Positions 3,139 to 42,052 of a stretch of 63,133 bases of DNA are shown piece by piece; within the stretch, counting starts at the first letter, position 1, and each line of letters begins with the position of its first letter. The notes beneath the pieces are model-generated. The model made no database searches and was not told the origin of the DNA. It saw only the letters and a list, made by a program, of their open reading frames with translations. The DNA comes from Planctomycetota bacterium (GTDB taxonomy: Bacteria; Planctomycetota; Phycisphaerae; UBA1845; Fen-1342), in NCBI GenBank assembly GCA_036729165.1, contig DAIMSQ010000004.1, positions 8,125-71,257 of the forward strand, given 5' to 3'. Position numbers and translations under genes: made by a program.

Positions 3139-3732
3139 ATGTCCGGCGAACAACCGGGTCCGGTAACGCAGCTTTTGCAGGCCGCCGGCCAGGGGGACGG
3201 TGCGGCGCGCGAGAAAATTTGGGCCATGGTTTATAGCGAGTTGCACCGCTTGGCGCAGCAACAACTGGCGGGCGACGCGCTGCGGCGCGGGCTTCAGCCG
3301 ACCGCGCTGGTGCACGAGGCCTATCTGCGGCTGGTCGGCGGGGCGGAGGTAACCTGGAGCAATCGTCGGCATTTTTTCGCGGCGGCCGCGCAGGCCATGC
3401 GGCGCATTCGGATCGAGGACGCGCGGCGGCAGCACCGGCTCAAGCGCGGCGCCGGGCAGCGGCCGGCCGCGCTCTTGGACGATCCGGCGCAATCCCCTTC
3501 CGACCCGCTGGAAATGCTGGCAATCGACGAGGCGTTGCGCAAGCTCGAGCAGCAGGACCCGCGCAAGGCCGAGATTGTGACCTTGCGTTTTTTCGCCGGA
3601 CTGACGGTGGACGAAACGGCCCGCGTATTGGAGATTTCGCCGCGTACCGTGGATGCGGAATGGCGGTTTGCCAAGGCATGGTTTCACCGCGAACTGAATG
3701 CCGGCGAGCGTTCCCCAGGCCCCGCTGAGTAG
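3139..3732 (+). CDS. ECF-type RNA polymerase sigma factor (kinase-associated ECF family)
   Basis: 197-aa ORF with GGAGA SD. N-terminus VTQLLQAAGQGDGAAREKIWAMVYSELHRLA and LVHEAYLRL are typical of the Sigma70_ECF family. C-terminal HTH region (LRFFAGLTVDETARVLEISPRTV). Confidence 0.85.
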   Translation: MSGEQPGPVTQLLQAAGQGDGAAREKIWAMVYSELHRLAQQQLAGDALRRGLQPTALVHEAYLRLVGGAEVTWSNRRHFFAAAAQAMRRIRIEDARRQHRLKRGAGQRPAALLDDPAQSPSDPLEMLAIDEALRKLEQQDPRKAEIVTLRFFAGLTVDETARVLEISPRTVDAEWRFAKAWFHRELNAGERSPGPAE

Positions 3733-3737
3733 TTGCC

Positions 3738-6700
3738 ATGTCGCCCGATCGCTGGCAACACGTGCAGGCGCTTTTCGAGCAGGCTCTGGCGCTGGCACCC
3801 AAGCAGCGGGACGAGTTTCTCACCCAAGCATGCGCCGACGACGCCGAGCTGCGCCAGGAAGTCACCACGCTGCTGGAGCACTATACCAACCTGCCGACCA
3901 ACTTCATGCAGCCTCCCAAAATCCCGTGCAGCGGGGCCGCCGCGCCCGACGCGCTGGTCGGCCAACAGATCGGGCGTTACAGGGTCAAGTCGGTAATTGC
4001 GACCGGCGGCATGGGCACCGTGTACGAGGCGGTCCAGGAGCAGCCGCGGCGCGTCGTGGCGTTGAAGGTCGTGAACCGCAGCCTCCTTTCGGCCGCGTCG
4101 GTGCGGCGCTTCCAGTTCGAGGCGCAAATCCTTGGCCGGCTGCGGCATGCCAACATCGCGCAAATTTACGAGGCGGGCACGCACGGCGACGGCCGCTGCT
4201 CGCTGCCGTTTTTCGCGATGGAGTACGTTCCGGGCGCCAGGAGCATTACCGCCTACGCGGCTGAAAAGAGGCTCTCCACCGCCGAGCGTCTGCGGCTGTT
4301 CGCCCGCATATGCGACGCAGTGGACCACGGCCACCAGAGGGGAATAATTCACCGCGATCTGAAACCCGCCAACATGCTGGTGGACTCCAGTGGCGAGCCG
4401 AAGGTAATCGACTTTGGCGTAGCCCGCGCCACCGATTCGGACCTCGCCCTGACGACGCACCAGACCAACATCGGCCAACTCGTCGGCACGATGCAATATA
4501 TGAGCCCCGAGCAGTGCGACGCCGACCCGCACGATCTCGACACGCGCAGCGATGTGTATTCGCTGGGTGTGGTGTTGTACGAATTACTGACCGGCGAACT
4601 GCCGTATCAGACGACTGGCAGCACTATCATTCAGCTCACCCATACCATTAGGGAGCAAGCCGCGCGGCGCCCTTCGCGCCTCAACCCGCGTCTGCGGGGC
4701 GACGTGGAGACCATAGTCCTCAAGGCGCTCGAGAAGGACCGCGAACGGCGCTATCGCTCGGCCGCGGCGCTGGCCGATGACATACGCCGTTACCTGGATG
4801 GGCGTCCCATCGCGGCCCGCCCACCCAGCCTGGCCTACGTCGCGTCCACCTTCGTGCGGCGCTATCCGTGGCCGATGGTTGCGACCGGCCTAGCGGTGCT
4901 GCTGCTCTTCAGCGGCTTGATCGGTTTTACCGTCACCGCCCGCTTAGCAAAGACAGCCGCGGAAAAAGAGCGCGTTGCGGCCGAGCAAAAGCAACAGTTG
5001 GCCCAGCGGATCAGCGCGCTGCGCGGAGCGGAAACGGCTCTGTGGGCCTACGACGTCGGAACTGCCCGCCGCCTGCTGGAGACAGCCGAGGCCAGCGGCA
5101 CGAGCTGGGAGCTGCGGCACCTGAAGTCGCGCCTGGATCAAAGCGCCGCGACGCTGGCCCAGCTCCCGCATCCGGTGCACCACATTTCGGTTGACCCGCA
5201 GGCGCGCTTTGTGGCCGTTTGCCTGGAGGGGCAGCCGGAGGTCGAGATTCGGGCTTTCAGCGACGGGCGGGTCCTGGCGCGGCTCGACCTCGATGGGCAC
5301 GTACCCCTGACGTCGGCCATAAAGCCGGATGGCGTCCTATTGGCGGTCGCCTCCGCCGACCGCTCAAATGCAACAGCCGGGCATATATGGCTTTTCGACT
5401 TGAGCTCTTCGAATGGGGCTCTGCTCGAGCGCTGGCCGGCCGATGAGCAGTCGCCCGTATCGAGTCTGGCCTTTCATCCGAGGGAACCGGTGCTGGCGAG
5501 CGCCTCCGGAAATCCTGGAGTGGTGCGACTGTGGCGGCTCGTGCGCCCGCCGGCCCGGCATACCTCGGACGACAATTACCTCCGTGAACCCCTGGCCACA
5601 CTCGCTGGGCATGGCGGTCCGGTGCAGACGCTGGCTTTTAGTCCCAGTGGACGATGGCTGGCGTCGGCCGGCAGGGACAGCACGGTGCGCGTCTGGGACT
5701 TCCGTGCGGCGGCGGAAGGCAACGCGAGTACGGCGGCCATCTTGTGCGGGCATAGCTGGTCAGTCAGTTGCCTGGATTTCAGCCCCGATGAAGGCCGGCT
5801 GGCCTCGGGCGGAGTAGACGGGACTATTCGCATTTGGAATCTGGAAACCGCGCTCGCAGGTTCGCGCGCGGATCAATATCTGTATGGCCCGGAAGTTCAG
5901 ATCGACGTGCTATATGGACACGATGCCCCGGTGCGCGCCGTCCGCTTCGACGATACGGGTCTGCGGCTGGTCTCCGGCGGTGATGATCGGGCCCTGCGCC
6001 TGTGGGAAACGAACGAGTCCGCGACCGTGCCCGATCCTGGCAGCGAACGGCGCGAGCTGCGCGTCCCGCGCCGACGCCTGCTTTCGGCGCTACGCGGGCA
6101 CCAGGGACCGATCGTGGGGCTGGCGCATGTGCCCGACGGACGGATTGTCTCCGCCTCGCTCGACGGCACGGTCCGGCTGTGGTGGCCGGAGGGCGAGGAC
6201 ATTCCGCGCCTACGCGGGCATTATGCCGGCGTGCGGGCCGTCACGTTTACGCCGGACAGCGCCTACGTCATATCGGCCGACGCGGATGATGGGATCATCA
6301 TCTGGGACGCGGACCTGTGCGTGCCGGTTGCCCGGCGCCACGTGCGATTGCGTGAGGGACTGGCGGGCATTCTCTGCTGGAATACGGGCACGCTCCCCGC
6401 GCGGACGCTGTTGGCCGTCGGCACCAGTGGGTACGGCGTGGGGAGCAAGGAAGGCGGGCGCGTGATCCTGTGGGACATCAGCGACCCGCGCGAGCCGCAG
6501 TGCATCAGCGACGTTGCCACAGGCGCGGGCGAGGCCGCCGGCGCTGTCTGCGCGCTCGCCATCAGCCCCGATAAGCACCGCTTGGCCGTCGGCGACGAAC
6601 ACGGCACACTGCGAATCTGGCCGGTTTCGGAAAGCGGCCTCGACGCGGGCGCCGGCCAGCGTATGAAACTGGCCGACCAGCCGGTTTCGGGTCTGGCTTT

Positions 6701-29562: not shown

Positions 29563-32500
29563 TCACCTCCAACCTGGACCTCGGATTTCCGAACGGTTAC
29601 CTGATACGGGCCTATCCGGCTGCAAGGAGGGCGTCCGCCACCTCCTGCCAAAGCTGGGCGCGCGACGGGTCGGGCAGTCCGACGGACACGAAGGACAGGC
29701 GCCCGTGAGGCACAGCACGAACGGGTCTATGTCAAAGGAATTCACGGTGCCGTCACAGTTGATGTCGGCTCGATCACATGAACAGCCCGGGTACGGCGTT
29801 CCGCTCACCAGGCAACTGATGAACGGGTCCAGGTCGAACGAGTTGACCAACCCGTCGCAGTTGACATCGCCCCTTCGGCCGACGGACAGCGCAGCTGGCG
29901 CGCTGATGACCTCACCACAGTCGTTCCACACTATCACCCAGTATTCTCCGCTGTCCGCCACACCGGCGTTCGATATGGCCAGACTCGCGGTAGTAGCGCC
30001 GCTGACCGTCCCGCCGCCAATGCTGGGCCCATCGGCAATCAGTTCGCCGTCTCTCAGCCACTGATACGCCGGGACCGGCGTCGCAACGCTGCGAACGACA
30101 AAGATCGCGTCGGCGCCATCCAGGAGCGATTGGCTTTCGGGCCCTTCGATGATTGAGGGTGCGCGCCGCCCATCCCAGAAGGCAATTCGCGATGATGCCA
30201 CGCCGCCTGCCTGGCTGAAGTTGCCCCCTCCCACAACTTGTGGCGCCAGGGGCCCGACGTCGTCGGGATCCCACGTTGCGAGGGCATATGGCTGGCTGCT
30301 AAGGCCGGCTCCGAAGGGCCACCAGGAGCTCCCGTCCCAGCGGGCGATGCGGCTTGCGGGGCTGCCGCCAGCCTGCGTGAAATAGCCGCCCACCACGAGT
30401 TGCGGAAGCAGCGCGCCCTCGCCGTCAGGATCCCAAGTTGCAAGCGCGTAGACCGTACTGTTGACGCCGCTGCCGCACGGTTGCCATACGGACCCGTTCC
30501 AGCGGGCGATACGCGACGCCGCAGCGCCGCCAGCCCCCGTGAAATCACCGCCGGCAACCAACTGCGCTGGCAGCGGACCCGCGCCATCAGGATCCCACGT
30601 AGCTAGCGCCCGAACGTAATTGGTCACGCCGGTACCAAGCGTCTGCCATGCTGAGCCGTTCCAGCACGCGATGCGATTGGCCGTGCTGCCGTCGGCTTGT
30701 GTAAAGGCTCCTCCTGCCACGAGCAACGGCGGCAGCGGGCCATCTCCATCCGGGTCCCAACTCGCCAGGGCGTATACGGTGCTGTTGACTCCGCTGCCAC
30801 ACGGCTGCCACGCGACCCCATCCCAGACGGCAATGCGCGACGCCGCGTTGCCGCCAGCCGTCGCGAAATCGCCGCCGGCGACCACTTGCGCCCAGAGCGG
30901 CCCGTCACCATCGGGGTCCCACGTTGTGAGTGCCCAAACGGTGTTGTCCAGCCCTGTTCCCAGCGGTTGCCAGGCCGCCCCATCCCACATAGCAACGCGG
31001 TTGGCTGCGCTGCCGTCGGCCTGCGTGAAGCTACCGCCGGCCACGACGTACGCCGGCAGAGGCCCGTCATCGCCATCGGGGTCCCACGTGGTGACGGCAT
31101 ACGCGTACCCACTAAGACCCAGTCCGAAGCGACGCCAAGCGTTCCCGTTCCAACTGGCGATGTAGTTCGCCACAGTGCTGCCAGCCCTAGTGAACTGCCC
31201 GGCGGCGACGAGCTCGGGCAGGAGCGGGCCACCCCCGTCTGGATCCCAGTTTATCAGCGACCGGACTTCCGCGTAGGTTCCACTCATCCCAGCCCCGCCT
31301 ATCGAGCACCAAGCGGATCCGTCCCACCGTGCGATGTAGTTGACGACCGCGGAGCCAGCCTGACTGAACTCGCCTCCTGTCACGACTTGCGCGACGCCGG
31401 TGCCACCACAATCCCACTCAACAAGCGCGTGGACCCTGGACGCCACGCCGCTCGAAAACGCTTGCCAACCAGACCCGTCCCAGCACGCAACCCGGGTCGC
31501 GGGCTGTCCCGTTGCAGGAGTGAAGTCACCCGCTGCCACCAGGCGCGCCGGAGCCCCGGCACTCTCGTGCCACAACGCCAGCGCGCGAATTGAACTGTTC
31601 ATTTCCATCCCTGTACCAAAGGCCTGCCATGCTGACCCATCCCAGCGTGCGACGTGGCGAATCATGGTGTTGCTACTGCCGATGTACGTAAAATTGCCAC
31701 CGACCACAAGCTGCGGGTGCGCCGGCCCTGCGCCATCGGGATCCCATGTCGTGACGGCGTTGACCGTGCCGTTGAGCCCCGCCCCCAGCGCCTGCCAGTT
31801 TGACCCGTCCCAGCAGGCGATGCGGCTCGCAGCGCCGCCCCCGGCATGGGTGAAGGATCCCCCCGCCACCAGGAGCGGTGGTTGCGGTCCCTCGCCATCC
31901 GGGTCCCACGTCGCGAGGGCATAAACCGTGCCGTTGACGCCCGTTCCAAGCGGCCGCCATAGCGGCTCGTCCCAGGTGGCGATATACGGCAGGCTGACAC
32001 CGCCGGCCTGCGAAAAGCTGCCGCCGGCAACGAGTTGCGCGGGCAGCGGTCCGTCGCCGTCAGGGTCCCAGTTCACCACCGCGTTTACACGGGAATTGAA
32101 CCCGGGCCTCACGAATCCCGGGAGCCAATCGGGGCACGGGCAATCCTGGCATTCGTCCGGAACGCCATTGTGGTTGCAGTCGAGGCTGGTGCCGGCTTCC
32201 ACATCGCACTCATCGGGTGTGTGGTTGCCGTTGCAGTCCTGGCTGACGCCGGAGCTGATATCGCATACATCCGGAATCCCGTTGTCGTTGCAGTCCGGCT
32301 GGCATTCATCCGGTACTCCATTCCCATCGTAGTCCAAACTGAACCCGGAACTCACGTCGCAACTATCCGGCACGCCATTGCCGTTACAGTCGCTGCTCCT
32401 GAGCATCTCCAAATCACACGAGTCGGGCAGGCCGTTGTCGTTGCAATCAGCGCTGGGCACGAAACCGTCAAACTCCATCGCCTCATACGCGGAAGTCGTA

Positions 32501-33977
32501 GCCGCCCGCCACAGGCTGAGGTGTGCGCCGTCGTGTCCGTACAGGTTCAGGTCGCGCACCTCGTACGGGCCGTCGATGCCGTGCGCGCCGATGTGGGCCC
32601 CGGCGAACTCCAGCGTCAGTGTCTGAAGGCCGCTCACGAGAGGTACAGGGTTCGATATGCACTGAAAATAGGCCCCGCAGTCGGCGACGAGGCAGGCGCT
32701 GCAGGCATACTCATCGGCCGCGCGCGCGTAGAGGCCCAACGTCACCTGCAACCGGTCGAAATCGCCGTCAGTGTCGTCGTCGATCGCAACGTCGCTGACC
32801 TCCCCGGTCAGGTAGAGGGGTGGGCCTTCAAACTGGCTAAGCAAATATGCCTGTGTCTGCTGCGATAGGTCGTGCAGCGCATCGGCCGGCACGGCCCCCT
32901 CACTGCTCACGTACATCAGGTCCGCCTCGCGAATCGTGTATGGCCCGTTCTCGCCCGTTGCCAGGATAGCCGCCGCCTGGATGCACGCGGTCATGCTTTG
33001 CGGACCGCCGGCCAGCGTCGCGTAGCCATAGGCCCGCAGCGGCTGGCCGGTGGCGGTTTCCAGCATGATGCTCAGGATGTAATCGCCCGCGGTGATGATC
33101 GAAATGGGCGCGGTGATGCACAGACGGTCGTACAAGCCGTTGCCGTTGGTATCCACGCCCTGGTCGGTGAACGCCCCGCTGCCGAAAGTGGCGCTTTGCG
33201 CGACGACCCGGACTCTGGCGCTGGCCACGCGCGCGAAAGGCACTTCGTTGCTCGTCAGCCCGGTGATATCCGCGACTGCCAGGTACTCGCCCACCTGTTC
33301 AGCTAGGAACACGGCGCTGTACAGCCCGTCGCCGACGGCGTGGTCGCCGTCCTCCCCGTTGTCCAGGAGCGCGATCGTAACGGAATCTCCCACCGGCGGC
33401 TTCAGCCAGACCGAAACCTCGGCCCCGCTGACCGGTGCCGCATTCTCGAAAACGAACGCGGTCAGCACCGGGGCTGTCCCCTGCGTCACTACGGGGTCTA
33501 ACGCCAACAGGTTACAGCCGACGGCGCTGTCGGTTATGAGCTCGATGATAAGCGCCGCCTGATCGGAAAGGCCGCCCGGTGGGGCGTACAAGTTCACAGT
33601 ATAGCTTCCGGGACCAGCCAGGGAAATACGTATATGTAGTGAAACCCTGGTTGATCGCAGGGCGACATGATGAAGCCGCTGGGAGCGGGCGGGCCTTCGC
33701 AAAATTGGAAGCACCCATAGTACGTCTCGACGGTTTGCTCGTTCAGCAGCTCGCCGCCCGGCCCTATGATCTCCGTGGCAACATCGTTTGCTGTGGAGGC
33801 GATCAGAATCTGAACCTCGGTAGCCTCGTCCACGTCAAGCACGACGGTGTCCGAAGGCACGTCAGGCGCCAGGCGCGCGACGGCAACTTGCGTCGAAGTC
33901 AGGGCAAGCTCGGCTCCCAGCGCACAAGTCGCGGCTCCCAGTGCAAACGAAACCACCACGATCACCCGCGCGCTCAT
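29563..33977 (-). CDS. giant secreted repeat protein; reading frame as given is broken (-1) near 33600-33640
   Basis: Signal-peptide ORF 33977->33594 (MSARVIVVVSFALGAATCALGA) overlaps the 1383-aa body ORF 33714->29563 in the -1 frame. The body has five CNxNGxPDxCD repeats and about a dozen ~55-aa WDPDGxGPxxPxLVxGGxFxxAGG...W..LG repeats. It also has an Ig-like domain and two dockerin-like DxNCDGxVNSFD motifs. Confidence 0.7.
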
Positions 33978-36599: not shown

Positions 36600-37643
36600 C
36601 TATGCGCCATGCCGTGCCCCTGGCTCCCCTTCCGCAGTGCCGCCCTGCGGGCCGACGCACGGCGTTTCCTCAGTCGACGCCTGCGCGTGGACCGCATCTG
36701 CCGCCGAGCGAACGATGTAAATCGGGCGCTGCTTGACCTCTTCGTACAGCCGGCCAACGTATTCGCCCAGTATCCACAGGACGACCAGGTTCACTCCACC
36801 CAAGGCCAGGACGGCCGCCAACGTGGACGCCCAGCCCGGAACGGTCCGGTCGGTGAAGAAGTACGCCCCGAGGACGAACAGCAGATACAACGTCGCGACG
36901 ACCGAAACACACGCCCCGGCCAATCCTGCCAGCCGCAGCGGCAAGGACGAAAACGAGAAAACTGCATCGCCCGCCAGGCGGAGCATGGCGCCCCAGGAGT
37001 ATTTCGAGCGCCCGGCGTGCCGCGGGGCGGCGTCGTACAGGATTTCGCGCCGCGTGAATCCGATCCACTGCACCAGACCGCGGTTGAAGCGACAACGCTC
37101 GGGGCAGGCTAGGAATGCGTCCACCGCCGGGCGAGACATCAGCCGGAAATCCGAAGCTCCGGGCGTGACCGCCAACCGCGAAACCGCTGACAGCAGCCGG
37201 TAGAACGCCCGGGAGCCGGCTCGCTTCAGCGGGCTTCGGTCCGCGGGCTCCCGCCGCACGGCTTGAACAACGTCGACTCCCTCATCCCACGCGGCCACCA
37301 GTTGTGGAATGAGTTCCGGCGGGTGCTGGAGATCGCCGTCCATGGTGATGACGGCCGCACCGCGCGCCTGCGCCAATCCGGCCACCAAAGCAGCCTGATG
37401 TCCGAAGTTTCGCGAGAGCCGCACCAGTCGCACAGCCGGGCAATCGACGGCGGCGGCGGTGATTCGGCTGGCGGTTTCATCGCAACTGCCATCGTCCACG
37501 AACAAGAGCTCAAATTCGCGGTTCAACGCCTGCAGAACGCGGAGAGTACGGTCCAGAAAGGCCGCAACATTCGCGGCTTCGTTGTACACCGGGACGACGA
37601 CGGACAGAATTGGTCGAAACTGGGCCGAACGCATTCGATCCAT
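36600..37643 (-). CDS. family 2 glycosyltransferase (polyprenol-phosphate sugar transferase, GtrB/ArnC/DPM1-like) with C-terminal TM helices
   Basis: 347-aa ORF. SVVVPVYNEAANV and LLFVDDGSCDET motifs, then two TM segments (LAGLAGACVSVVATLYLLFVLGAYFF, LAAVLALGGVNLVVLWILG). Confidence 0.85.
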   Translation of the reverse strand: MDRMRSAQFRPILSVVVPVYNEAANVAAFLDRTLRVLQALNREFELLFVDDGSCDETASRITAAAVDCPAVRLVRLSRNFGHQAALVAGLAQARGAAVITMDGDLQHPPELIPQLVAAWDEGVDVVQAVRREPADRSPLKRAGSRAFYRLLSAVSRLAVTPGASDFRLMSRPAVDAFLACPERCRFNRGLVQWIGFTRREILYDAAPRHAGRSKYSWGAMLRLAGDAVFSFSSLPLRLAGLAGACVSVVATLYLLFVLGAYFFTDRTVPGWASTLAAVLALGGVNLVVLWILGEYVGRLYEEVKQRPIYIVRSAADAVHAQASTEETPCVGPQGGTAEGEPGARHGA

Positions 37644-37699: not shown

Positions 37700-37729
37700 T
37701 TGACAGAAGTGCCCATAGGTCCGGATTAT
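37700..37729 (+). promoter_or_regulatory. sigma-70-like promoter TTGACA-N18-GATTAT (a second TTGACT lies at 37691)
   Basis: Read directly in the AT-richer divergent region between the GT2 gene and the micropeptide array. Confidence 0.4.
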
Positions 37730-37736
37730 GTTTTTT

Positions 37737-37785
37737 GGTTGGGTTTGCGCGGTCCTGCCATTGTGGCGGGAACCAACCCTTTTTT
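37737..37785 (+). terminator. terminator-like hairpin flanked by T-runs, upstream of micropeptide a
   Basis: The stem is GGTTGG...TCCTGCC-ATTGT-GGCGGGA...CCAACC. It is followed by CTTTTTT and preceded by TTTTTT. Confidence 0.5.
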
Positions 37786-37811
37786 CAGTCTCGCAGCAAT
37801 GGAGAAGCGCG

Positions 37812-37886
37812 ATGGATTTTTGGGGATTGTTGATCTGGATCGGAATCGGGGCACTCGTGTTCTGGCTGTTCACGCAGGCCGTCTAA
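37812..37886 (+). CDS. micropeptide a, 24 aa, single TM: MDFWGLLIWIGIGALVFWLFTQAV
   Basis: GGAGA SD 6 nt upstream. GC3 is 19/24. Followed by hairpins (37892-37907 and 37917-37940) and a T-run at 37954-37960. Paralogous to b and c. Confidence 0.55.
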   Translation: MDFWGLLIWIGIGALVFWLFTQAV

Positions 37887-37973
37887 CAGGAATCCGCTGG
37901 CGCGGATGAGAAGCATGGCCCCCGCCGGTTTGCGGGGGCCGCTTTGACCTGCCTTTTTTTCGAAGGAGTTCAA

Positions 37974-38060
37974 ATGTTTGGTGGATGGATTGAGTTGCTG
38001 TTCTGGGGCGCAATCGCCGCGGTCATTATTTTCATTCTCACCGGCCAGGCGGCTGCCTAG
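37974..38060 (+). CDS. micropeptide b, 28 aa, single TM: MFGGWIELLFWGAIAAVIIFILTGQAAA
   Basis: AAGGAG SD 5 nt upstream. GC3 is 20/28. Followed by hairpin GCTCCCCA-TGCATG-TGGGGAGC (38123-38144). Confidence 0.6.
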   Translation: MFGGWIELLFWGAIAAVIIFILTGQAAA

Positions 38061-38164
38061 GTGTAGAAGTGCTGGTACGTCGCGGTTGCGACTTTATCCA
38101 GTGACAAGCGACTTCTGAACGAGCTCCCCATGCATGTGGGGAGCCTAATGTGAAGGAGGACAGC

Positions 38165-38245
38165 ATGGTAGGATGGTGGTGGTGGCTGACTTGGGCCGGC
38201 GTCATCCTATTTGTTGCGGCCCTGCTCGCCGGTCAGAACGTCTGA
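38165..38245 (+). CDS. micropeptide c, 26 aa, single TM: MVGWWWWLTWAGVILFVAALLAGQNV
   Basis: GAAGGAGG SD 6-7 nt upstream. GC3 is 20/26. Followed by an imperfect hairpin around 38262-38296. Confidence 0.6.
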   Translation: MVGWWWWLTWAGVILFVAALLAGQNV

Positions 38246-38310
38246 TTACTGAGGCGATTTGAAGAGGGCTCGAGGGCTCAATGCCCGTGAGCTCTTTGTG
38301 AGGTGTGCTT

Positions 38311-38394
38311 ATGACTTGGTTGCTGGGTTTGTTGTTTTTCGGCGGCATCGGCCTGATTCTCGGGCTTCTGATCCCGTCGTTGATCCCGGCTTAG
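38311..38394 (+). CDS. micropeptide d, 27 aa, single TM: MTWLLGLLFFGGIGLILGLLIPSLIPA
   Basis: GAGGTG SD 6 nt upstream. GC3 is 21/27. Followed by two strong hairpins (38423-38444 and 38453-38487). Confidence 0.5.
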   Translation: MTWLLGLLFFGGIGLILGLLIPSLIPA

Positions 38395-38452
38395 TCTACA
38401 AGCAGTGCTCTTACGCTAATGCGAGCCCCGCAGCCGCGGGGCTCTCCCCAAC

Positions 38453-38497
38453 GCGCCGATCCTCTCCGAACTGGAGAGCATCGGCGCGTTCTATTTT
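38453..38497 (+). terminator. rho-independent-type terminator closing the micropeptide array (convergent with the protease gene)
   Basis: GCGCCGATCCTCTCC-GAACT-GGAGAGCATCGGCGC forms 14 bp with one mismatch, followed by GTTCTATTTT. Confidence 0.65.
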
Positions 38498-38557
38498 GGA
38501 TTGGACGGCCGGCACATCAAAACCCGCGCGGCCAGCTCAGATATCCGCGGACTCCGC

Positions 38558-41500
38558 TTAGTTCTTTCCGCGCTCGTTCTCCAAGCCCATGCCGCTGCGG
38601 TCCGGCGGCGGAGGCGGCGGAGGTTCAATGAACGGGTGCAGCGAGATTTCTTCGAGCATCAGCTCGATCGCGCGATCAAGTTGCGGGTCGCCGCCGTCGA
38701 CCATCCTTGACGGGTCGTCGATCACCTCGATGTCCGGATCAACGCCGTGCCCCTCGATGGCCCACGTGCTGTCCAGGTTGTAGGCGCCGAACGTGGGCAC
38801 GCTCAAGTGCCGCCCGTCGATGAAATCGGGGTTGCCCGAAATCCCGACCAACCCGCCCCAAGTCCGCGTGCCGATCAGCTTGCCCAGACCGACCTGCCGA
38901 AAGTACGCCGGAAAAGCATCACCGCCCGAGCCGGCCAAGCCGTTTATCAGCATGCACTTCGGCCCTTGATGACTTTGTGGCGGCGTGCGACCCGGGCGCC
39001 CGTGGCGCCGCGCCCACATGCTCAAGAGCGGGCGATTCAACAGCTCGATGAACCGATCTGGAATCTGACCGCCGCCGTTCCAGCGGTCGTCGATGATCAG
39101 CGCTTGTTTGAAGCGTTGGCCGTGGAATTGGCGCACCAGTTCGGCCTGCCCGTCGCGCCCGGTGTTGGGAACGTAGATGTAGCCGACTTTGCCACCGCTG
39201 CGCTCATCCACGTAAGCCCGTTTGGCCTCGACCCAGGCGCGATAGCGGAGCGCGCGTTCGCTGGCCAGTAGCTCGACGACAACGTCGCGCGCCTTGTCAT
39301 TCAGCACAGGCTGGTCGCTGACGGTCAGGACAACCGTGCGGCCCGCCAGACCCTGGAAAGCCGCCCACGGATCTTTTCGCGTGTCGAGCGGCAATCCGTT
39401 CACCGCCAATAGGTAATCGCCCTCCTTCACCTCAATGCCGGGCTGGCTCAGCGGTCCGCGGACATCGAGGTCCCACGGCCCACCGGCGTGAATCTTGCTG
39501 ATTCGATAGGCGCCATCCTGCAGCTCGAAATCGACCCCGAGCAACCCCACCGAAACGCGGGGCCCCTGGTCGGGATCGGTAGCGTTGTAGTAGGCGTGCC
39601 CGACGTTCAACTCCGAAATCATCTCCTTGATGATGAAACTCACGTCCTCGCGGCAAATGCAATCATCCAGCATCTTGCCGTATCGTGCCCGGATATCCGG
39701 CCAGTCAATGCCGTGCATGTTGGGCACGTAGAAGAAATCGCGCATGATCCGCCAAGCCTCGCTGAAAACTTCACGCCATTCCTGCCGCGGATCGATGCTC
39801 ACCACCATGCCGCTGGTGGGCATGGGCTTGTCGGTCTTCTGATCCGGCCGAGCCTTGACGATGAACAGCTTGCCGTCCTTGCGAACGAGGATTTTTTTAC
39901 CGTCGGCGCTGAGGCCGAAGCCGCGCACGTCCTTAAGCACGGTCTTCTCTTTCTTCTCGTCGTCCTTGACGTCGAAGATTTTGATGGCCGGCTTCTCGTC
40001 CGAACCGCGCAGCGGACGACGCACGTACAGCAAATGCCCCTCGTCGTTGACCGCGAGGTGGCTGAAATTGCCGGCCGGCACCGGCAATGGAATGGCCCGC
40101 GCCTCGAACCCCTCGAGTTCGATTTCCACGGGCTTGACCTTCTTTTTCTTCTTGCCTTTTTTGCTTTCTGCTTCCCGCTCTTCGGCTTCCTTGGGCTGTT
40201 CGGCCGGCGCGCTGGAGGTTGCCGGCTGCCCGGCGTCGCCCTCCCCCGAGTCATCCTTTTCCGCTTCGCCCGGATCGTCCTTATCTTCTCCGCCGGATTC
40301 GTCCTTTTCGTCTTTCTGTTTCTCCTCCTTCTCCTTCTCCTTCTTTTCCTTCTTCTCGCCCTTCTCCCGGGCCTGGCCCCACTTCTCCTCGTCGCTCTTG
40401 GGCGCCCACGGCGAGCCGACCTCCGCGCGCAGCGGCACCAGGCACAGCATTTCCGTCTTTACATATACCCAGGTGTTGCCCAGCTCAGTGTAGATCGGCG
40501 TATCGACGTTTCGATTCGTGGTGAAGTAGAGATAATCGCCCTCGCGATCGAATGTCGGGCTGGTGCTGTTGAAGAGTGCGCTCGTAAGCTGCCGCTTTTC
40601 GCCGCTCTCCGCGTTGTACAGCCAGATCGTGCTCAGATCGCTGTCGGTCCGTTTGGTGTAAGCGATCCAGCGCGAATCCGGCGACCAACTCGCCTCGGGC
40701 AACCTGGCATCCGGGTCGGTGTCCACCAGCTTCGATTCGTCCTCTTCAATCGCCCGCAGGTACAGGTTGCCGGCGTTGTCGCCGTAGACCACGGACTTCG
40801 CATCCGGCGACCAGAGAATGCCGTAGCGGAAGCCTGGCCCGTGATTCGTCAGCTTGCGCGGCTCGGACTTGCCGTCGGATTGCACCAGGTACAGCTCATT
40901 TTCGTCGGTGGCGTCCGACCAGTACGCGATCCAGCGCCCGTCCGGGCTCCAGCTCGGATAGCGCTCATGCGTGCCCACGCTGCGCGTCAGATTCCGCGGC
41001 GAGCCGTCTCGCGCCGGAGCCGTCCAGATGTCGCCGCGTGCTTCCATCACGGCCCGCTTACCGCTCGGCGAAATCGCAATGCTGCGAATGTCGCTGCTCA
41101 CATCGATGAGCTGTGGCCGAATCTTCGGCCGATCGCCGGGAATCGTGACGTCGACCGCGCGGCTCTGGCCGCTGGCCAGGTTGAGCAGATACAGCTCCGT
41201 GCCGTTCTGAAAAACAATCTCGCCCTCACCGTTCGGGCCGGGCCCGATCGCCGGCCACTTGATGTCGAACTCTGCGAATTTCGTGATCTGCCGGCGTTCT
41301 TTGCTGACCCGGTCGTACGACCAGATGTTGAGGCGGTGTTCCGGGCCCGCGTCGGACATGTAGTACAGCATGTTGCCGTGCCACATCGGCTGCGAGTCGG
41401 TGCCCGCCCAGCAGGTGATGCACTCCGCGCGGTGGTCCTTCAAGTTGAACAGCCAGATGTCAGTCGCCATGCCGCCGCAATAACGCTTCCACGTGCGGTT

Positions 41501-42052
41501 ATCCGTGGTGTGCAGGGTGTACGCCAGCCACTCGCCGTCGGGGCTGATGGCCGCGTTCGCCCCATAGGGCACGGGCAGTTTCTCGGGCAAGCCGCCGTTG
41601 GAGGCGACCGTGAAGAGCTGTGCCATGCGCGCGAAGGGCGCCTGGGCGTTCGAGAAGAATATCAGCCGGCCGTCCGGAGAAAAGTCGCACAGATTCTCGG
41701 TCGCCGGGTGGTGCGTCACACGAAAGGGCACGCCGCCGGTCACCGGCAACGTGTACAGATCGGTATTGCCGTCATAGTTGGCCATGAACGCGATCGTCTG
41801 CCCGTCGCTGCTGAAGCGCGGAAACGACTCCACGCCGGCCGGACTGGACAAGGGATGGGCCATGCCGCCGTCGCGCGGCACGACCCACAGGTCATTCGCA
41901 TAAGAAAACACGATGTGCGTGGCACTCACGTCTGGGTTGACGAGCATCCCCGCGTGTGGCCGCACGTCCCCGCGTGCGGCGTGCATCCCCAGCCCCGCCG
42001 TCCAAACCAGCGTTACCACAAGCGACATCCCCCGCACGCTGCACCCGCGCAT
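38558..42052 (-). CDS. tricorn-protease-like S41 peptidase (TolB-like propellers + PDZ + C-terminal peptidase) with a K/E/D-rich insertion
   Basis: 1164-aa ORF with signal peptide (MSLVVTLVWTAGLGMHAARG). Repeated SPDG.. propeller motifs (FSPDGRLIFF, ISPDGEWLAY, WSPDGRWIAYW, WSPDSRWIAY). S41 core (GSGGDAFP, TWGG). The low-complexity segment is encoded at ~40135-40400. Confidence 0.85.
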   Translation of the reverse strand: MRGCSVRGMSLVVTLVWTAGLGMHAARGDVRPHAGMLVNPDVSATHIVFSYANDLWVVPRDGGMAHPLSSPAGVESFPRFSSDGQTIAFMANYDGNTDLYTLPVTGGVPFRVTHHPATENLCDFSPDGRLIFFSNAQAPFARMAQLFTVASNGGLPEKLPVPYGANAAISPDGEWLAYTLHTTDNRTWKRYCGGMATDIWLFNLKDHRAECITCWAGTDSQPMWHGNMLYYMSDAGPEHRLNIWSYDRVSKERRQITKFAEFDIKWPAIGPGPNGEGEIVFQNGTELYLLNLASGQSRAVDVTIPGDRPKIRPQLIDVSSDIRSIAISPSGKRAVMEARGDIWTAPARDGSPRNLTRSVGTHERYPSWSPDGRWIAYWSDATDENELYLVQSDGKSEPRKLTNHGPGFRYGILWSPDAKSVVYGDNAGNLYLRAIEEDESKLVDTDPDARLPEASWSPDSRWIAYTKRTDSDLSTIWLYNAESGEKRQLTSALFNSTSPTFDREGDYLYFTTNRNVDTPIYTELGNTWVYVKTEMLCLVPLRAEVGSPWAPKSDEEKWGQAREKGEKKEKKEKEKEEKQKDEKDESGGEDKDDPGEAEKDDSGEGDAGQPATSSAPAEQPKEAEEREAESKKGKKKKKVKPVEIELEGFEARAIPLPVPAGNFSHLAVNDEGHLLYVRRPLRGSDEKPAIKIFDVKDDEKKEKTVLKDVRGFGLSADGKKILVRKDGKLFIVKARPDQKTDKPMPTSGMVVSIDPRQEWREVFSEAWRIMRDFFYVPNMHGIDWPDIRARYGKMLDDCICREDVSFIIKEMISELNVGHAYYNATDPDQGPRVSVGLLGVDFELQDGAYRISKIHAGGPWDLDVRGPLSQPGIEVKEGDYLLAVNGLPLDTRKDPWAAFQGLAGRTVVLTVSDQPVLNDKARDVVVELLASERALRYRAWVEAKRAYVDERSGGKVGYIYVPNTGRDGQAELVRQFHGQRFKQALIIDDRWNGGGQIPDRFIELLNRPLLSMWARRHGRPGRTPPQSHQGPKCMLINGLAGSGGDAFPAYFRQVGLGKLIGTRTWGGLVGISGNPDFIDGRHLSVPTFGAYNLDSTWAIEGHGVDPDIEVIDDPSRMVDGGDPQLDRAIELMLEEISLHPFIEPPPPPPPDRSGMGLENERGKN

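Follow-up and report, generated by a model that had tools for sequence, protein, structure and literature searches.

A previously unnamed family of tryptophan-rich hydrophobic micropeptides encoded in conserved arrays of Phycisphaerae

A 63-kb stretch of a Phycisphaerae genome (GenBank assembly GCA_036729165.1, contig DAIMSQ010000004.1), hereafter the window, carries a tandem array of four unannotated micro-open reading frames (ORFs), a to d, that encode Trp-rich hydrophobic peptides and lie divergent from a GT2 glycosyltransferase gene. Comparison with related loci indicates that ORFs a, b and c are real genes of a conserved family and that ORF d, likewise a conserved gene, represents another type or one that has strongly diverged. 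The previously unnamed family is new within a known class, that of small hydrophobic membrane proteins, and as far as sampled it is restricted to Phycisphaerae (Planctomycetota). Its arrays are accompanied by two conserved RNA elements, a stem-loop in the 5'-untranslated region (5'-UTR) and a terminator, both of which are new to Rfam. The four ORFs of the window are listed below, with coordinates that refer to the whole stretch and E-values from the family hidden Markov model (HMM).

37812-37886, plus strand: ORF a, 24 amino acids (aa), MDFWGLLIWIGIGALVFWLFTQAV; type-1-like, with 'WIGIG'; E = 6.5e-7
37974-38060, plus strand: ORF b, 28 aa, MFGGWIELLFWGAIAAVIIFILTGQAAA; type 2; E = 3.1e-11
38165-38245, plus strand: ORF c, 26 aa, MVGWWWWLTWAGVILFVAALLAGQNV; type 2; E = 1.5e-7
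38311-38394, plus strand: ORF d, 27 aa, MTWLLGLLFFGGIGLILGLLIPSLIPA; has a GxxxG-like motif and is of a separate or diverged type; E = 1.6

A preliminary description, made from the letters of this DNA, had proposed these ORFs by eye, and re-reading returned the same coordinates and translations exactly. It had also placed a Shine-Dalgarno sequence (SD) before each ATG; the sites found for a, b, c and d are GGAG(A), AAGGAG, GAAGGAGG and GAGGTG, and they end 5-7 nt upstream of the start codon. Its hand counts of G or C at third codon positions (GC3) hold for a (19/24) and d (21/27) and were one too high for b and c, which have 19/28 and 19/26. These values (0.68-0.79) are similar to those of the flanking GT2 (0.76) and protease (0.82) genes; the non-ORF stretches of the array gap have a GC content of 0.58. 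The locus is indeed AT-richer than its surroundings, with a GC content of 0.525-0.58 versus 0.62-0.70. Both strands of the whole window were scanned for ATG-initiated ORFs of 20-40 codons that follow an SD and whose products are at least 80% hydrophobic and have no more than one charged residue; ORFs a to d were the sole matches.

Further evidence for coding comes from relatives, which were gathered through the neighbouring GT2 gene (36600-37643, minus strand). Homologues 63-94% identical to this GT2 were found in metagenome-assembled genomes (MAGs) of Phycisphaerae/Planctomycetota and in metagenomes. A GT2-based metagenome scan supplied five close relatives, and the other 75 loci, in which GT2 is at most 50% identical, served as negative controls. 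Three loci with a GT2 89-94% identical (L013-L015) have a near-identical array, and L012 (GT2 87%) has diverged copies, MGWSWFMWVGIGALVWFLFTSVQ, MLGGWWQWLLWGGIALFVIFLLTGQTLG and MTWLLGLIFFGGIGLIIGLLIPR. ORF a and its L012 orthologue differ by a single indel, of 3 nt and in frame; ORF c aligns with MLGGWWQWLLWGGIALFVIFLLTGQTLG at the DNA level; ORF d is kept in L012-L015, with MTWLLGLIFFGGIGLIIGLLIPR as its L012 version. At larger distances (GT2 66-74% identical), L016-L019 and L023-L025 all retain a 1-1.4-kb 'empty' gap that holds one to five similar small ORFs on the strand divergent from GT2, for example MWSNWWMWLVWGGVALVVYYLLTGTTLT, MLFGNTWWHWLVWAGIGVLLYLLVTGQTTAAG and MWDGWWHWMIWIGIAGILYYLLTGAIATT, each with a GGAG 6-9 nt 5' of its ATG. 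Homologous ORFs, one to five per array, were found in 12 distinct metagenome or MAG lineages of Phycisphaerae relatives. Start, stop, frame and SD spacing are maintained in more than 30 units from these lineages, and GGAG stands at a constant spacing in every unit.

A family HMM built from 14 peptides and run against six-frame translations of the window and 100 loci gave matches confined to micropeptide arrays, with none elsewhere in the window and none in the 75 control loci with a distant GT2. Its E-values for a, b and c bear out the earlier suggestion that these three are paralogous. Counts by the Nei-Gojobori method of the proportions of synonymous (pS) and nonsynonymous (pN) differences point to selection on the encoded amino acids.

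L019_2 / L018_0: pS 0.55, pN 0.12
L016_3 / L018_0: pS 0.71, pN 0.28
L018_1 / L016_1: pS 0.70, pN 0.32
Mean of 231 pairs: pS 0.65, pN 0.44

Among distant members pS ranges over 0.55-0.76, against 0.12-0.32 for pN. The preliminary description had named conservation in close relatives as a check on its coding proposal, and the proposal came through it: no indel breaks the frame, the ORFs are kept, and conservation within them is at the codon rather than the nucleotide level. Family conservation, the excess of pS over pN and SD spacing in relatives all support coding. The ORFs therefore have the marks by which small membrane proteins are recognized, namely a conserved SD-led short ORF (sORF), purifying selection and one predicted hydrophobic helix.

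Peptide properties were computed for 30 non-redundant members of 23-36 aa, 889 residues in total. They are rich in Leu (16%), Gly (14.1%), Trp (12.3%), Ile (9%) and Thr (8.8%), with two to eight Trp codons per ORF, and nearly devoid of charge, Lys and Arg together contributing 6 of the 889 residues (0.7%) and Asp and Glu 14. Mean hydrophobicity is high; hydrophobic moments along the helix are very small (0.01-0.19), and the helices are therefore not amphipathic. On approximate scale values, the apparent free energy of insertion of the best 17-residue segment is about zero or below in most members. AlphaFold2, given a small family alignment, predicted the homologue P0121 as one continuous helix over residues 7-31 (mean predicted local distance difference test score, pLDDT, 86). 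Together with the Trp content, the hydrophobic segment and the single predicted helix agree with the first description of these products as Trp-rich peptides with a single transmembrane (TM) segment. The consensus, M-x(1-6)-W-W-x-W-L-x-W-G-G-I-A-x3-Y-x-L-L-T-G-(Q/T)-T, has a Trp cluster at one end and Tyr and Thr-Gly-Gln at the opposite end, with Gly-Gly or a GxxxG-like face mid-helix; the tails consist of Thr, Gly, Gln and Ala.

No named family accounts for these peptides, as had been stated at the outset. Searches of Pfam, NCBIfam and PADLOC gave no relevant match at E up to 10, and sequence searches of PHROGs and the PDB gave none. A peptide profile made from a self-duplicated alignment was applied to a collection of 5.8 billion proteins; the search of its 1.84 billion cluster representatives returned only seven family proteins, all unnamed. 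A link to CydX/YbgT found no match in Pfam or the PDB, and the neighbours of the arrays are GT2, a tricorn-like protease, metG, PfkB and PEPCK rather than cydAB. A scan of metagenome contigs with the peptide pattern gave 192 matches, none of which was confirmed. The sole pattern match among viral contigs (L020 3001-3066 from IMG/VR, RLIWSWLEWGGVYRL) was set aside as a chance match inside a 207-aa phage ORF. In Rfam, the best match to the window had E = 1.3, far below the gathering score, and six related loci gave no match at E up to 1.

The family is present in public databases as a few unnamed 'hypothetical' calls, some of them with wrong starts. P0123, called on 30 Joint Genome Institute (JGI) contigs, is identical to the protein of ORF b. 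P0126, seen on 35 contigs, is a 52-aa extended form of ORF a (37728-37886); its called start is probably wrong, because the N-terminal extension overlaps the promoter -10 element and the leader hairpin described below and is not conserved in L012. The calls P0122 and P0129 are likewise over-extended, with the 5'-UTR motif translated as '...AAGPKRV...' and '...RRRGG...'.

The ORFs of the window are embedded in predicted transcription signals and stable RNA structure, listed here in order.

37700-37729, plus strand: sigma-70-like promoter, TTGACA-18-GATTAT, 5' of the array; the -35 element CTTGACAGA and the position of the -10 element are conserved in L012
37741-37785, plus strand: 5' leader hairpin (37741-37779) followed by U6, just 3' of the promoter-like site; fold -20.2 kcal/mol
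37887-37960, plus strand: hairpins after ORF a with a U7 tract; -37.4 kcal/mol, z = -2.75; terminator-like, probably partial
38061-38144, plus strand: hairpins between b and c; -37.4 kcal/mol, z = -3.89
38263-38297, plus strand: hairpin between c and d; -24.1 kcal/mol, z = -3.55
38423-38444, plus strand: GC-rich hairpin 3' of ORF d, from fold prediction
38450-38499, plus strand: array-terminal terminator hairpin AACGCGCCGAUC...GAUCGGCGCGUU with a U-rich tail; 18-nt arms, 94% complementary

Segments between and after the ORFs fold with z-scores of -2.75, -3.89, -3.55 and -7.13, and the array region as a whole folds far better than shuffled sequences (z = -7.2). The four ORFs most likely form one operon, because the gaps between consecutive members are only 65-104 nt. 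The preliminary description had seen a repeating unit of SD, ORF and hairpin. Hairpins do stand between and after the ORFs, but the unit is better described as an optional promoter, a 5' hairpin, an SD and an ORF, closed by a conserved terminator; the leader hairpin with its U6 had gone unmentioned. The end of the array had further been called a strong terminator, of which the conserved element and its 18-nt arms stand; the U-tail of the final hairpin (38450-38490) is weak (CUAUUUUGG), and the hairpin failed a strict terminator rule.

In the relatives, most units of L016-L019, L023-L025, L101 and L103 consist of a promoter-like site (TTGACG-N17-nAnnAT), a 5'-UTR element, a spacer and an SD-ATG. 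The 5'-UTR element, of about 45 nt, reads GCGUUUCGG-UUnnnn-CCCGUCGGCGCGGCGGGG-CCGAAGC-GAGUGG and is followed by a spacer of 8-14 nt and then by (A)CA(U/C)GGAG(U)-N7-AUG. It folds as a two-helix stem-loop in which 93.9% of alignment cells pair, against 33-48% with slid partners, and RNAalifold finds compensatory changes in 7 of 15 pairs. In the consensus fold of the units the strong SD is left unpaired. Since the consensus contains G·U pairs, the element works only as sense-strand RNA. Two readings of the motif at the DNA level were dropped, an extracytoplasmic-function (ECF) sigma promoter, for which the spacing is far too short, and a palindromic operator, as its T·G positions pair only in sense-strand RNA. 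The SD context ACAUGGAG has what we take to be a resemblance to CsrA sites, and binding of CsrA was likewise considered and dropped. A covariance model of the element (R1) gave 13 matches of 49-69 bits, solely 5' of micropeptide ORFs; outside the training set it matched L023 (57 bits) and L101 (70 bits).

L016, minus strand: 5'-UTR stem-loops at 2841-2889, 2592-2640 and 2357-2405
L017, minus strand: 5'-UTR stem-loops at 2845-2894, 2272-2320 and 2007-2055
L018, minus strand: 5'-UTR stem-loops at 2811-2858 and 2573-2622
L019, minus strand: 5'-UTR stem-loops at 2524-2572 and 1890-1938
L023, L024 and L025, minus strand: 5'-UTR stem-loops at 3307-3357, 3283-3332 and 3301-3352, respectively
L101, plus strand: 5'-UTR stem-loop at 3930-3978

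Within the stem-loop CGGCGCGGC is invariant, though synonymous sites of the ORFs are saturated, and this pairing of invariance with saturation suggests a trans-acting binder. The covariance model did not detect the canonical motif in the window, even with its filters off; where relatives have that motif, the lineage of the window, including L012, has a different hairpin and a U-run. The leader hairpin at 37741-37785, whose sequence is conserved in L012 5' of two units, appears from its position to be the diverged counterpart of the relatives' stem-loop.

The terminator element consists of AACGCG(Y)CGAUC-loop-GAUCG(R)CGCGUU and, 3' of it, a U-rich tract. It ends the arrays of the window and 10 related loci, with copies in L012, L016, L018 (two), L019 (two), L023, L025, L102 and L103. 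Compensatory changes affect 8 of its 15 pairs, for example a U-A to C-G change in the window. Some relatives have the terminator hairpin between units as well, and there its 3' arm enters the 5'-UTR motif of the next unit.

Paralogue types keep their order across lineages, L016 agreeing with L103, and L018 with L019 and L102. Type 1 (WWHW...W[IAV]GI) comes first and type 2 (MWSNWW.W...) second, followed by types 3 and 4 in L016 and L103 or by type 5 in L018, L019 and L102. Type 3, M.(N/K)WFFDGT.GS.IGF..VA.LYIFA..., has 36-39 aa; type 4 begins MFFGIG[ND]G.WYW... and type 5 MWDFSWNWRN.... The window is without types 3-5 and has ORF d in their place.

L016, reverse complement, 905-1024: further micropeptide of types 3-5
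L103, 3107-3217 and 3289-3393: further micropeptides of types 3-5
L102, 2122-2134: further micropeptide of types 3-5
L018 and L019, last units: further micropeptides of types 3-5

The surroundings of the arrays are less constant. Sampling through GT2 found the array divergent from it in all 11 loci with a GT2 at least 66% identical and upstream sequence present. Arrays found through the peptide have other neighbours: PEPCK lies upstream in L101, PfkB is divergent in L102, and L103 and L104 have an unrelated 665-aa protein upstream. The link to GT2 is therefore not obligatory, since the peptide-found arrays of L101-L103 adjoin these other genes and have no GT2 beside them. Downstream, metG follows on the same strand in eight loci (L012, L016, L018, L019, L023, L024, L025 and L103), separated from the array by the conserved terminator and by a promoter-like element of its own, (C/T)TACCATCCG, conserved about 50-60 nt 5' of the metG start; the other flank of the L017 array is a ParA-like gene. 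Where relatives have metG, the window has a convergent tricorn-like protease gene (38558-42052, minus strand) 3' of the array, and this replacement points to a rearrangement breakpoint at the array's terminator.

The protease itself has PD40, Tricorn_C1, PDZ_Tricorn and Peptidase_S41 domains and, at residues ~557-640, a low-complexity insert of about 80 residues rich in Lys, Glu and Asp (EKKEKKEKEKEEKQKDEKDE...). A search of genome contigs found its best relative, among the matches listed, to be 54% identical and not syntenic; the homologue in L001 (54% identical) has a different acidic insert at the same place. Elsewhere in the window, a 1383-aa ORF (29563-33714, minus strand) probably encodes a large secreted or cell-surface protein; it combines DUF5122 beta-propeller repeats with Ig-like domains and a type I dockerin.

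From these data we propose, with a probability of roughly 0.6, that the array is an autonomous and probably highly expressed module for single-span, uncharged, Trp-flanked membrane peptides that pack together or with a larger membrane protein. Transcription in the window would start at the promoter-like site at 37700-37729 and yield an mRNA with the 5' hairpin first and then the a-b-c-d operon, its cistrons parted by stable hairpins and each provided with its own strong, unpaired SD. The hairpin with a U-tract 3' of ORF a would probably stop part of the transcripts, and the conserved terminator at 38450-38499 would end the rest. In the relatives most units would be monocistronic, each with a promoter-like site, the ~45-nt 5'-UTR stem-loop, an SD, an ORF and a terminator. 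Each peptide would form one membrane-spanning helix with Trp at the N-terminal interface, Tyr and Thr-Gly-Gln at the C-terminal interface, almost no charge, and a central GG or GxxxG-like face of small residues. Old, distinct paralogue types in a fixed order argue for non-redundant roles. The peptides would most likely be abundant in the membrane and act as subunit-like modulators rather than as self-poisoning toxins or regulatory leader peptides.

Several points weigh against this proposal. The HMM score of ORF d (E = 1.6) makes its relation to a-c not significant. In the closest informative comparison, window versus L012, omega (the ratio of nonsynonymous to synonymous change) is 0.65-0.83, which suggests either that constraint in the window's own lineage is weak or that the peptides evolve fast. 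Translation of a-d is predicted from evolutionary evidence, and with the canonical 5'-UTR motif missing in the window, the operon model there draws on spacing and promoter-like matches. Topology, and the choice between stable transmembrane and interfacial insertion, are uncertain, because the peptides have virtually no Lys or Arg and hence no positive-inside signal. The functional statement is also generic.

Small hydrophobic single-TM peptides encoded in tandem in a long unannotated gap, with strongly structured RNA around them, recall type I toxin-antitoxin loci. The peptides would then be membrane-depolarising toxins checked by antisense or trans-acting small RNAs (sRNAs), and the tandem copies duplicated toxin-antitoxin modules. 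Search criteria for type I toxins include tandem repetition and a TM segment (PMC2887945). The array peptides, at 23-36 aa, are within the 60-aa limit and have a predicted TM segment; their duplication within one intergenic region, a frequent though not obligatory feature, runs to four copies in the window and one to five in relatives; and the conserved 5'-UTR stem-loop could be an sRNA target. However, a hallmark of type I toxins is a C-terminal cluster of charged or bulky polar residues (PMC2887945), which the array peptides, with their 6 Lys and Arg in 889 residues, lack, and no toxin family was matched in Pfam, NCBIfam or PADLOC. Consensus scans, which an sRNA could escape, found no antisense promoter-like site in the L016 and L019 arrays; sense promoter matches were enriched in L016 (2 versus 0.3 expected) and absent from L019. 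The ORFs are under no constraint from an overlapping antisense gene, as their nearly saturated synonymous sites show, and the strong SD is unpaired in the consensus fold. The paralogue types are old, distinct and ordered, unlike the near-identical copies of recently duplicated toxins. We consider a toxin function unlikely on these grounds. Alternatively, the peptides could be accessory or anchor subunits of the divergent polyprenyl-phosphate-type GT2, by analogy with DPM2/DPM3 and DPM1, or its substrates, O-glycosylated on a Thr-rich tail. Thr and Gln are plentiful in their C-terminal tails, the array is directly divergent from GT2 in the window and in all 11 GT2-sampled loci, and the GT2 side stays in place while the other flank varies (tricorn-like protease in the window, metG in L012, ParA-like gene in L017). 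Yet the sampled genomes are all fairly close relatives, so that synteny with GT2 can be plain inheritance; GT2 has C-terminal hydrophobic segments of its own; distant GT2 homologues have no such peptides beside them; and the peptide-found arrays adjoin PEPCK, PfkB or the 665-aa protein without GT2. We give this account little credence. The three functional options of the preliminary description have thus fared differently: a new small membrane protein family is supported, type-I-toxin-like peptides are disfavoured, and accessory subunits of a membrane complex, taken here to be the neighbouring GT2, are weakened. A glycocin or ribosomally synthesized and post-translationally modified peptide (RiPP) precursor, suggested by the adjacency of GT2, was dropped, since a leader, Cys and a transporter are all missing and GT2 is not an obligatory neighbour.

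Three further accounts have a much smaller share of our belief. Tandem, SD-led, unannotated ORFs of about 25 codons formally resemble the staphylococcal psm-alpha operon, and Trp richness is common in leaderless bacteriocins, so the peptides might be secreted or released as leaderless bacteriocins, surfactants like the phenol-soluble modulins (PSMs), or signals. The peptides, however, are neither amphipathic (moment 0.01-0.19) nor cationic, their uniformly hydrophobic core fits a membrane-resident helix, and no transporter, immunity or processing gene occurs among the scanned neighbours in the window or in the related loci, which makes release very unlikely. The two to eight Trp codons per ORF, the hairpins after each ORF, some with U-tracts, and the metG gene downstream on the same strand in eight related loci could alternatively be read as a set of regulatory leader peptides through which the supply of Trp-tRNA attenuates downstream genes. 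But in the window nothing lies downstream and the next gene is convergent, in relatives the conserved terminator and a separate promoter-like element split the array from metG, and a Trp sensor before a Met-tRNA synthetase would be physiologically senseless. Selection at the amino-acid level moreover acts on the entire hydrophobic helix and on the LTGQ tail, something a leader peptide would not need, and we find this account scarcely credible. Equally improbable to us is that the ORFs are accidental and the region merely forms a structured non-coding RNA or consists of repeats, although it folds far better than its shuffles, has hairpins conserved at the nucleotide level and shows the high omega of the L012 comparison. 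The conserved RNA elements lie outside the ORFs, whereas within them amino acids are conserved and synonymous sites saturated; more than 30 units, spread over 12 lineages, preserve their start, stop, reading frame and SD distance; GC3 is gene-like; and no Rfam family was matched. The conserved arrays and codon-level selection have largely refuted this reading already.

An extension of the proposal that the arrays encode membrane-resident peptides is possible, and we advance it tentatively as a speculation with rather low odds. The array might be a self-contained, co-regulated module whose several non-redundant micropeptides together build a hetero-oligomeric structure in the membrane of these Planctomycetota, for instance a pore, a scaffold that organises lipids or an element that shapes the membrane, with their synthesis under a new cis-regulatory RNA. 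That RNA would be the 5'-UTR stem-loop, with CCCGUCGGCGCGGCGGG inside GUUUCGG/CCGAAGC and then GAGUGG, and it could bind a dedicated protein, an sRNA or a small ligand. Either a hetero-oligomeric structure or a new riboregulator, if true, would raise the significance of the family.

Annotation systematically misses small membrane proteins, above all in uncultured phyla. Against this background, the arrays contribute a family validated by evolution, with more than 30 members, ordered paralogues, extreme composition and two accompanying RNA elements. They could serve as a test case for sORF annotation in Planctomycetota, as a natural counterpart of WALP peptides for membrane biophysics, and as a way into a regulatory 5'-UTR motif that is possibly new.

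The closest parallels in kind are AcrZ, KdpF, MgtS and CydX of E. coli, bacterial small membrane proteins of less than 50 aa that were found as unannotated sORFs. The array peptides share their size class, single hydrophobic helix, strong SD, neglect by gene callers and clade-limited conservation, and CydX also has an aromatic, Trp-containing N-terminus (MWYFxW...). They have no sequence relationship to these proteins in Pfam, NCBIfam or the PDB, and their near absence of Lys and Arg and their 12% Trp are unusual by comparison. The E. coli proteins are encoded by single genes in or beside the operon of a partner, whereas the arrays hold one to five ordered paralogues, free-standing, with predicted promoters of their own and no constant neighbour. 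The type I toxin loci ibs-sib, ldr-rdl and zorO-orzO (PMC2887945, PMC3919570) are similar in encoding short TM peptides, unannotated and in tandem within one intergenic region, amid RNA structure; the array peptides differ in having no charged C-terminal cluster, no detectable antisense promoter and no toxin homology, and in their open SD and old, ordered paralogues.

The staphylococcal psm-alpha operon comprises four tandem genes of about 21 codons. Like the array of the window, it has four micro-ORFs in a row, each led by an SD, within a single short transcription unit that annotation long missed; PSMs, however, are amphipathic, cationic or neutral, and exported, whereas the array peptides are uniformly hydrophobic with a low moment. 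In their chemistry the array peptides come close to the WALP peptides, synthetic models of the form GWW(LA)nLWWA, with which they share an uncharged hydrophobic helix, some 20 residues long and flanked by Trp, and aromatics at the membrane interfaces. WALPs are designed tools rather than genes, and the natural peptides are set apart from them by Trp that is mainly N-terminal, Tyr-Tyr and Thr-Gly-Gln on the other side, and a central Gly-Gly.

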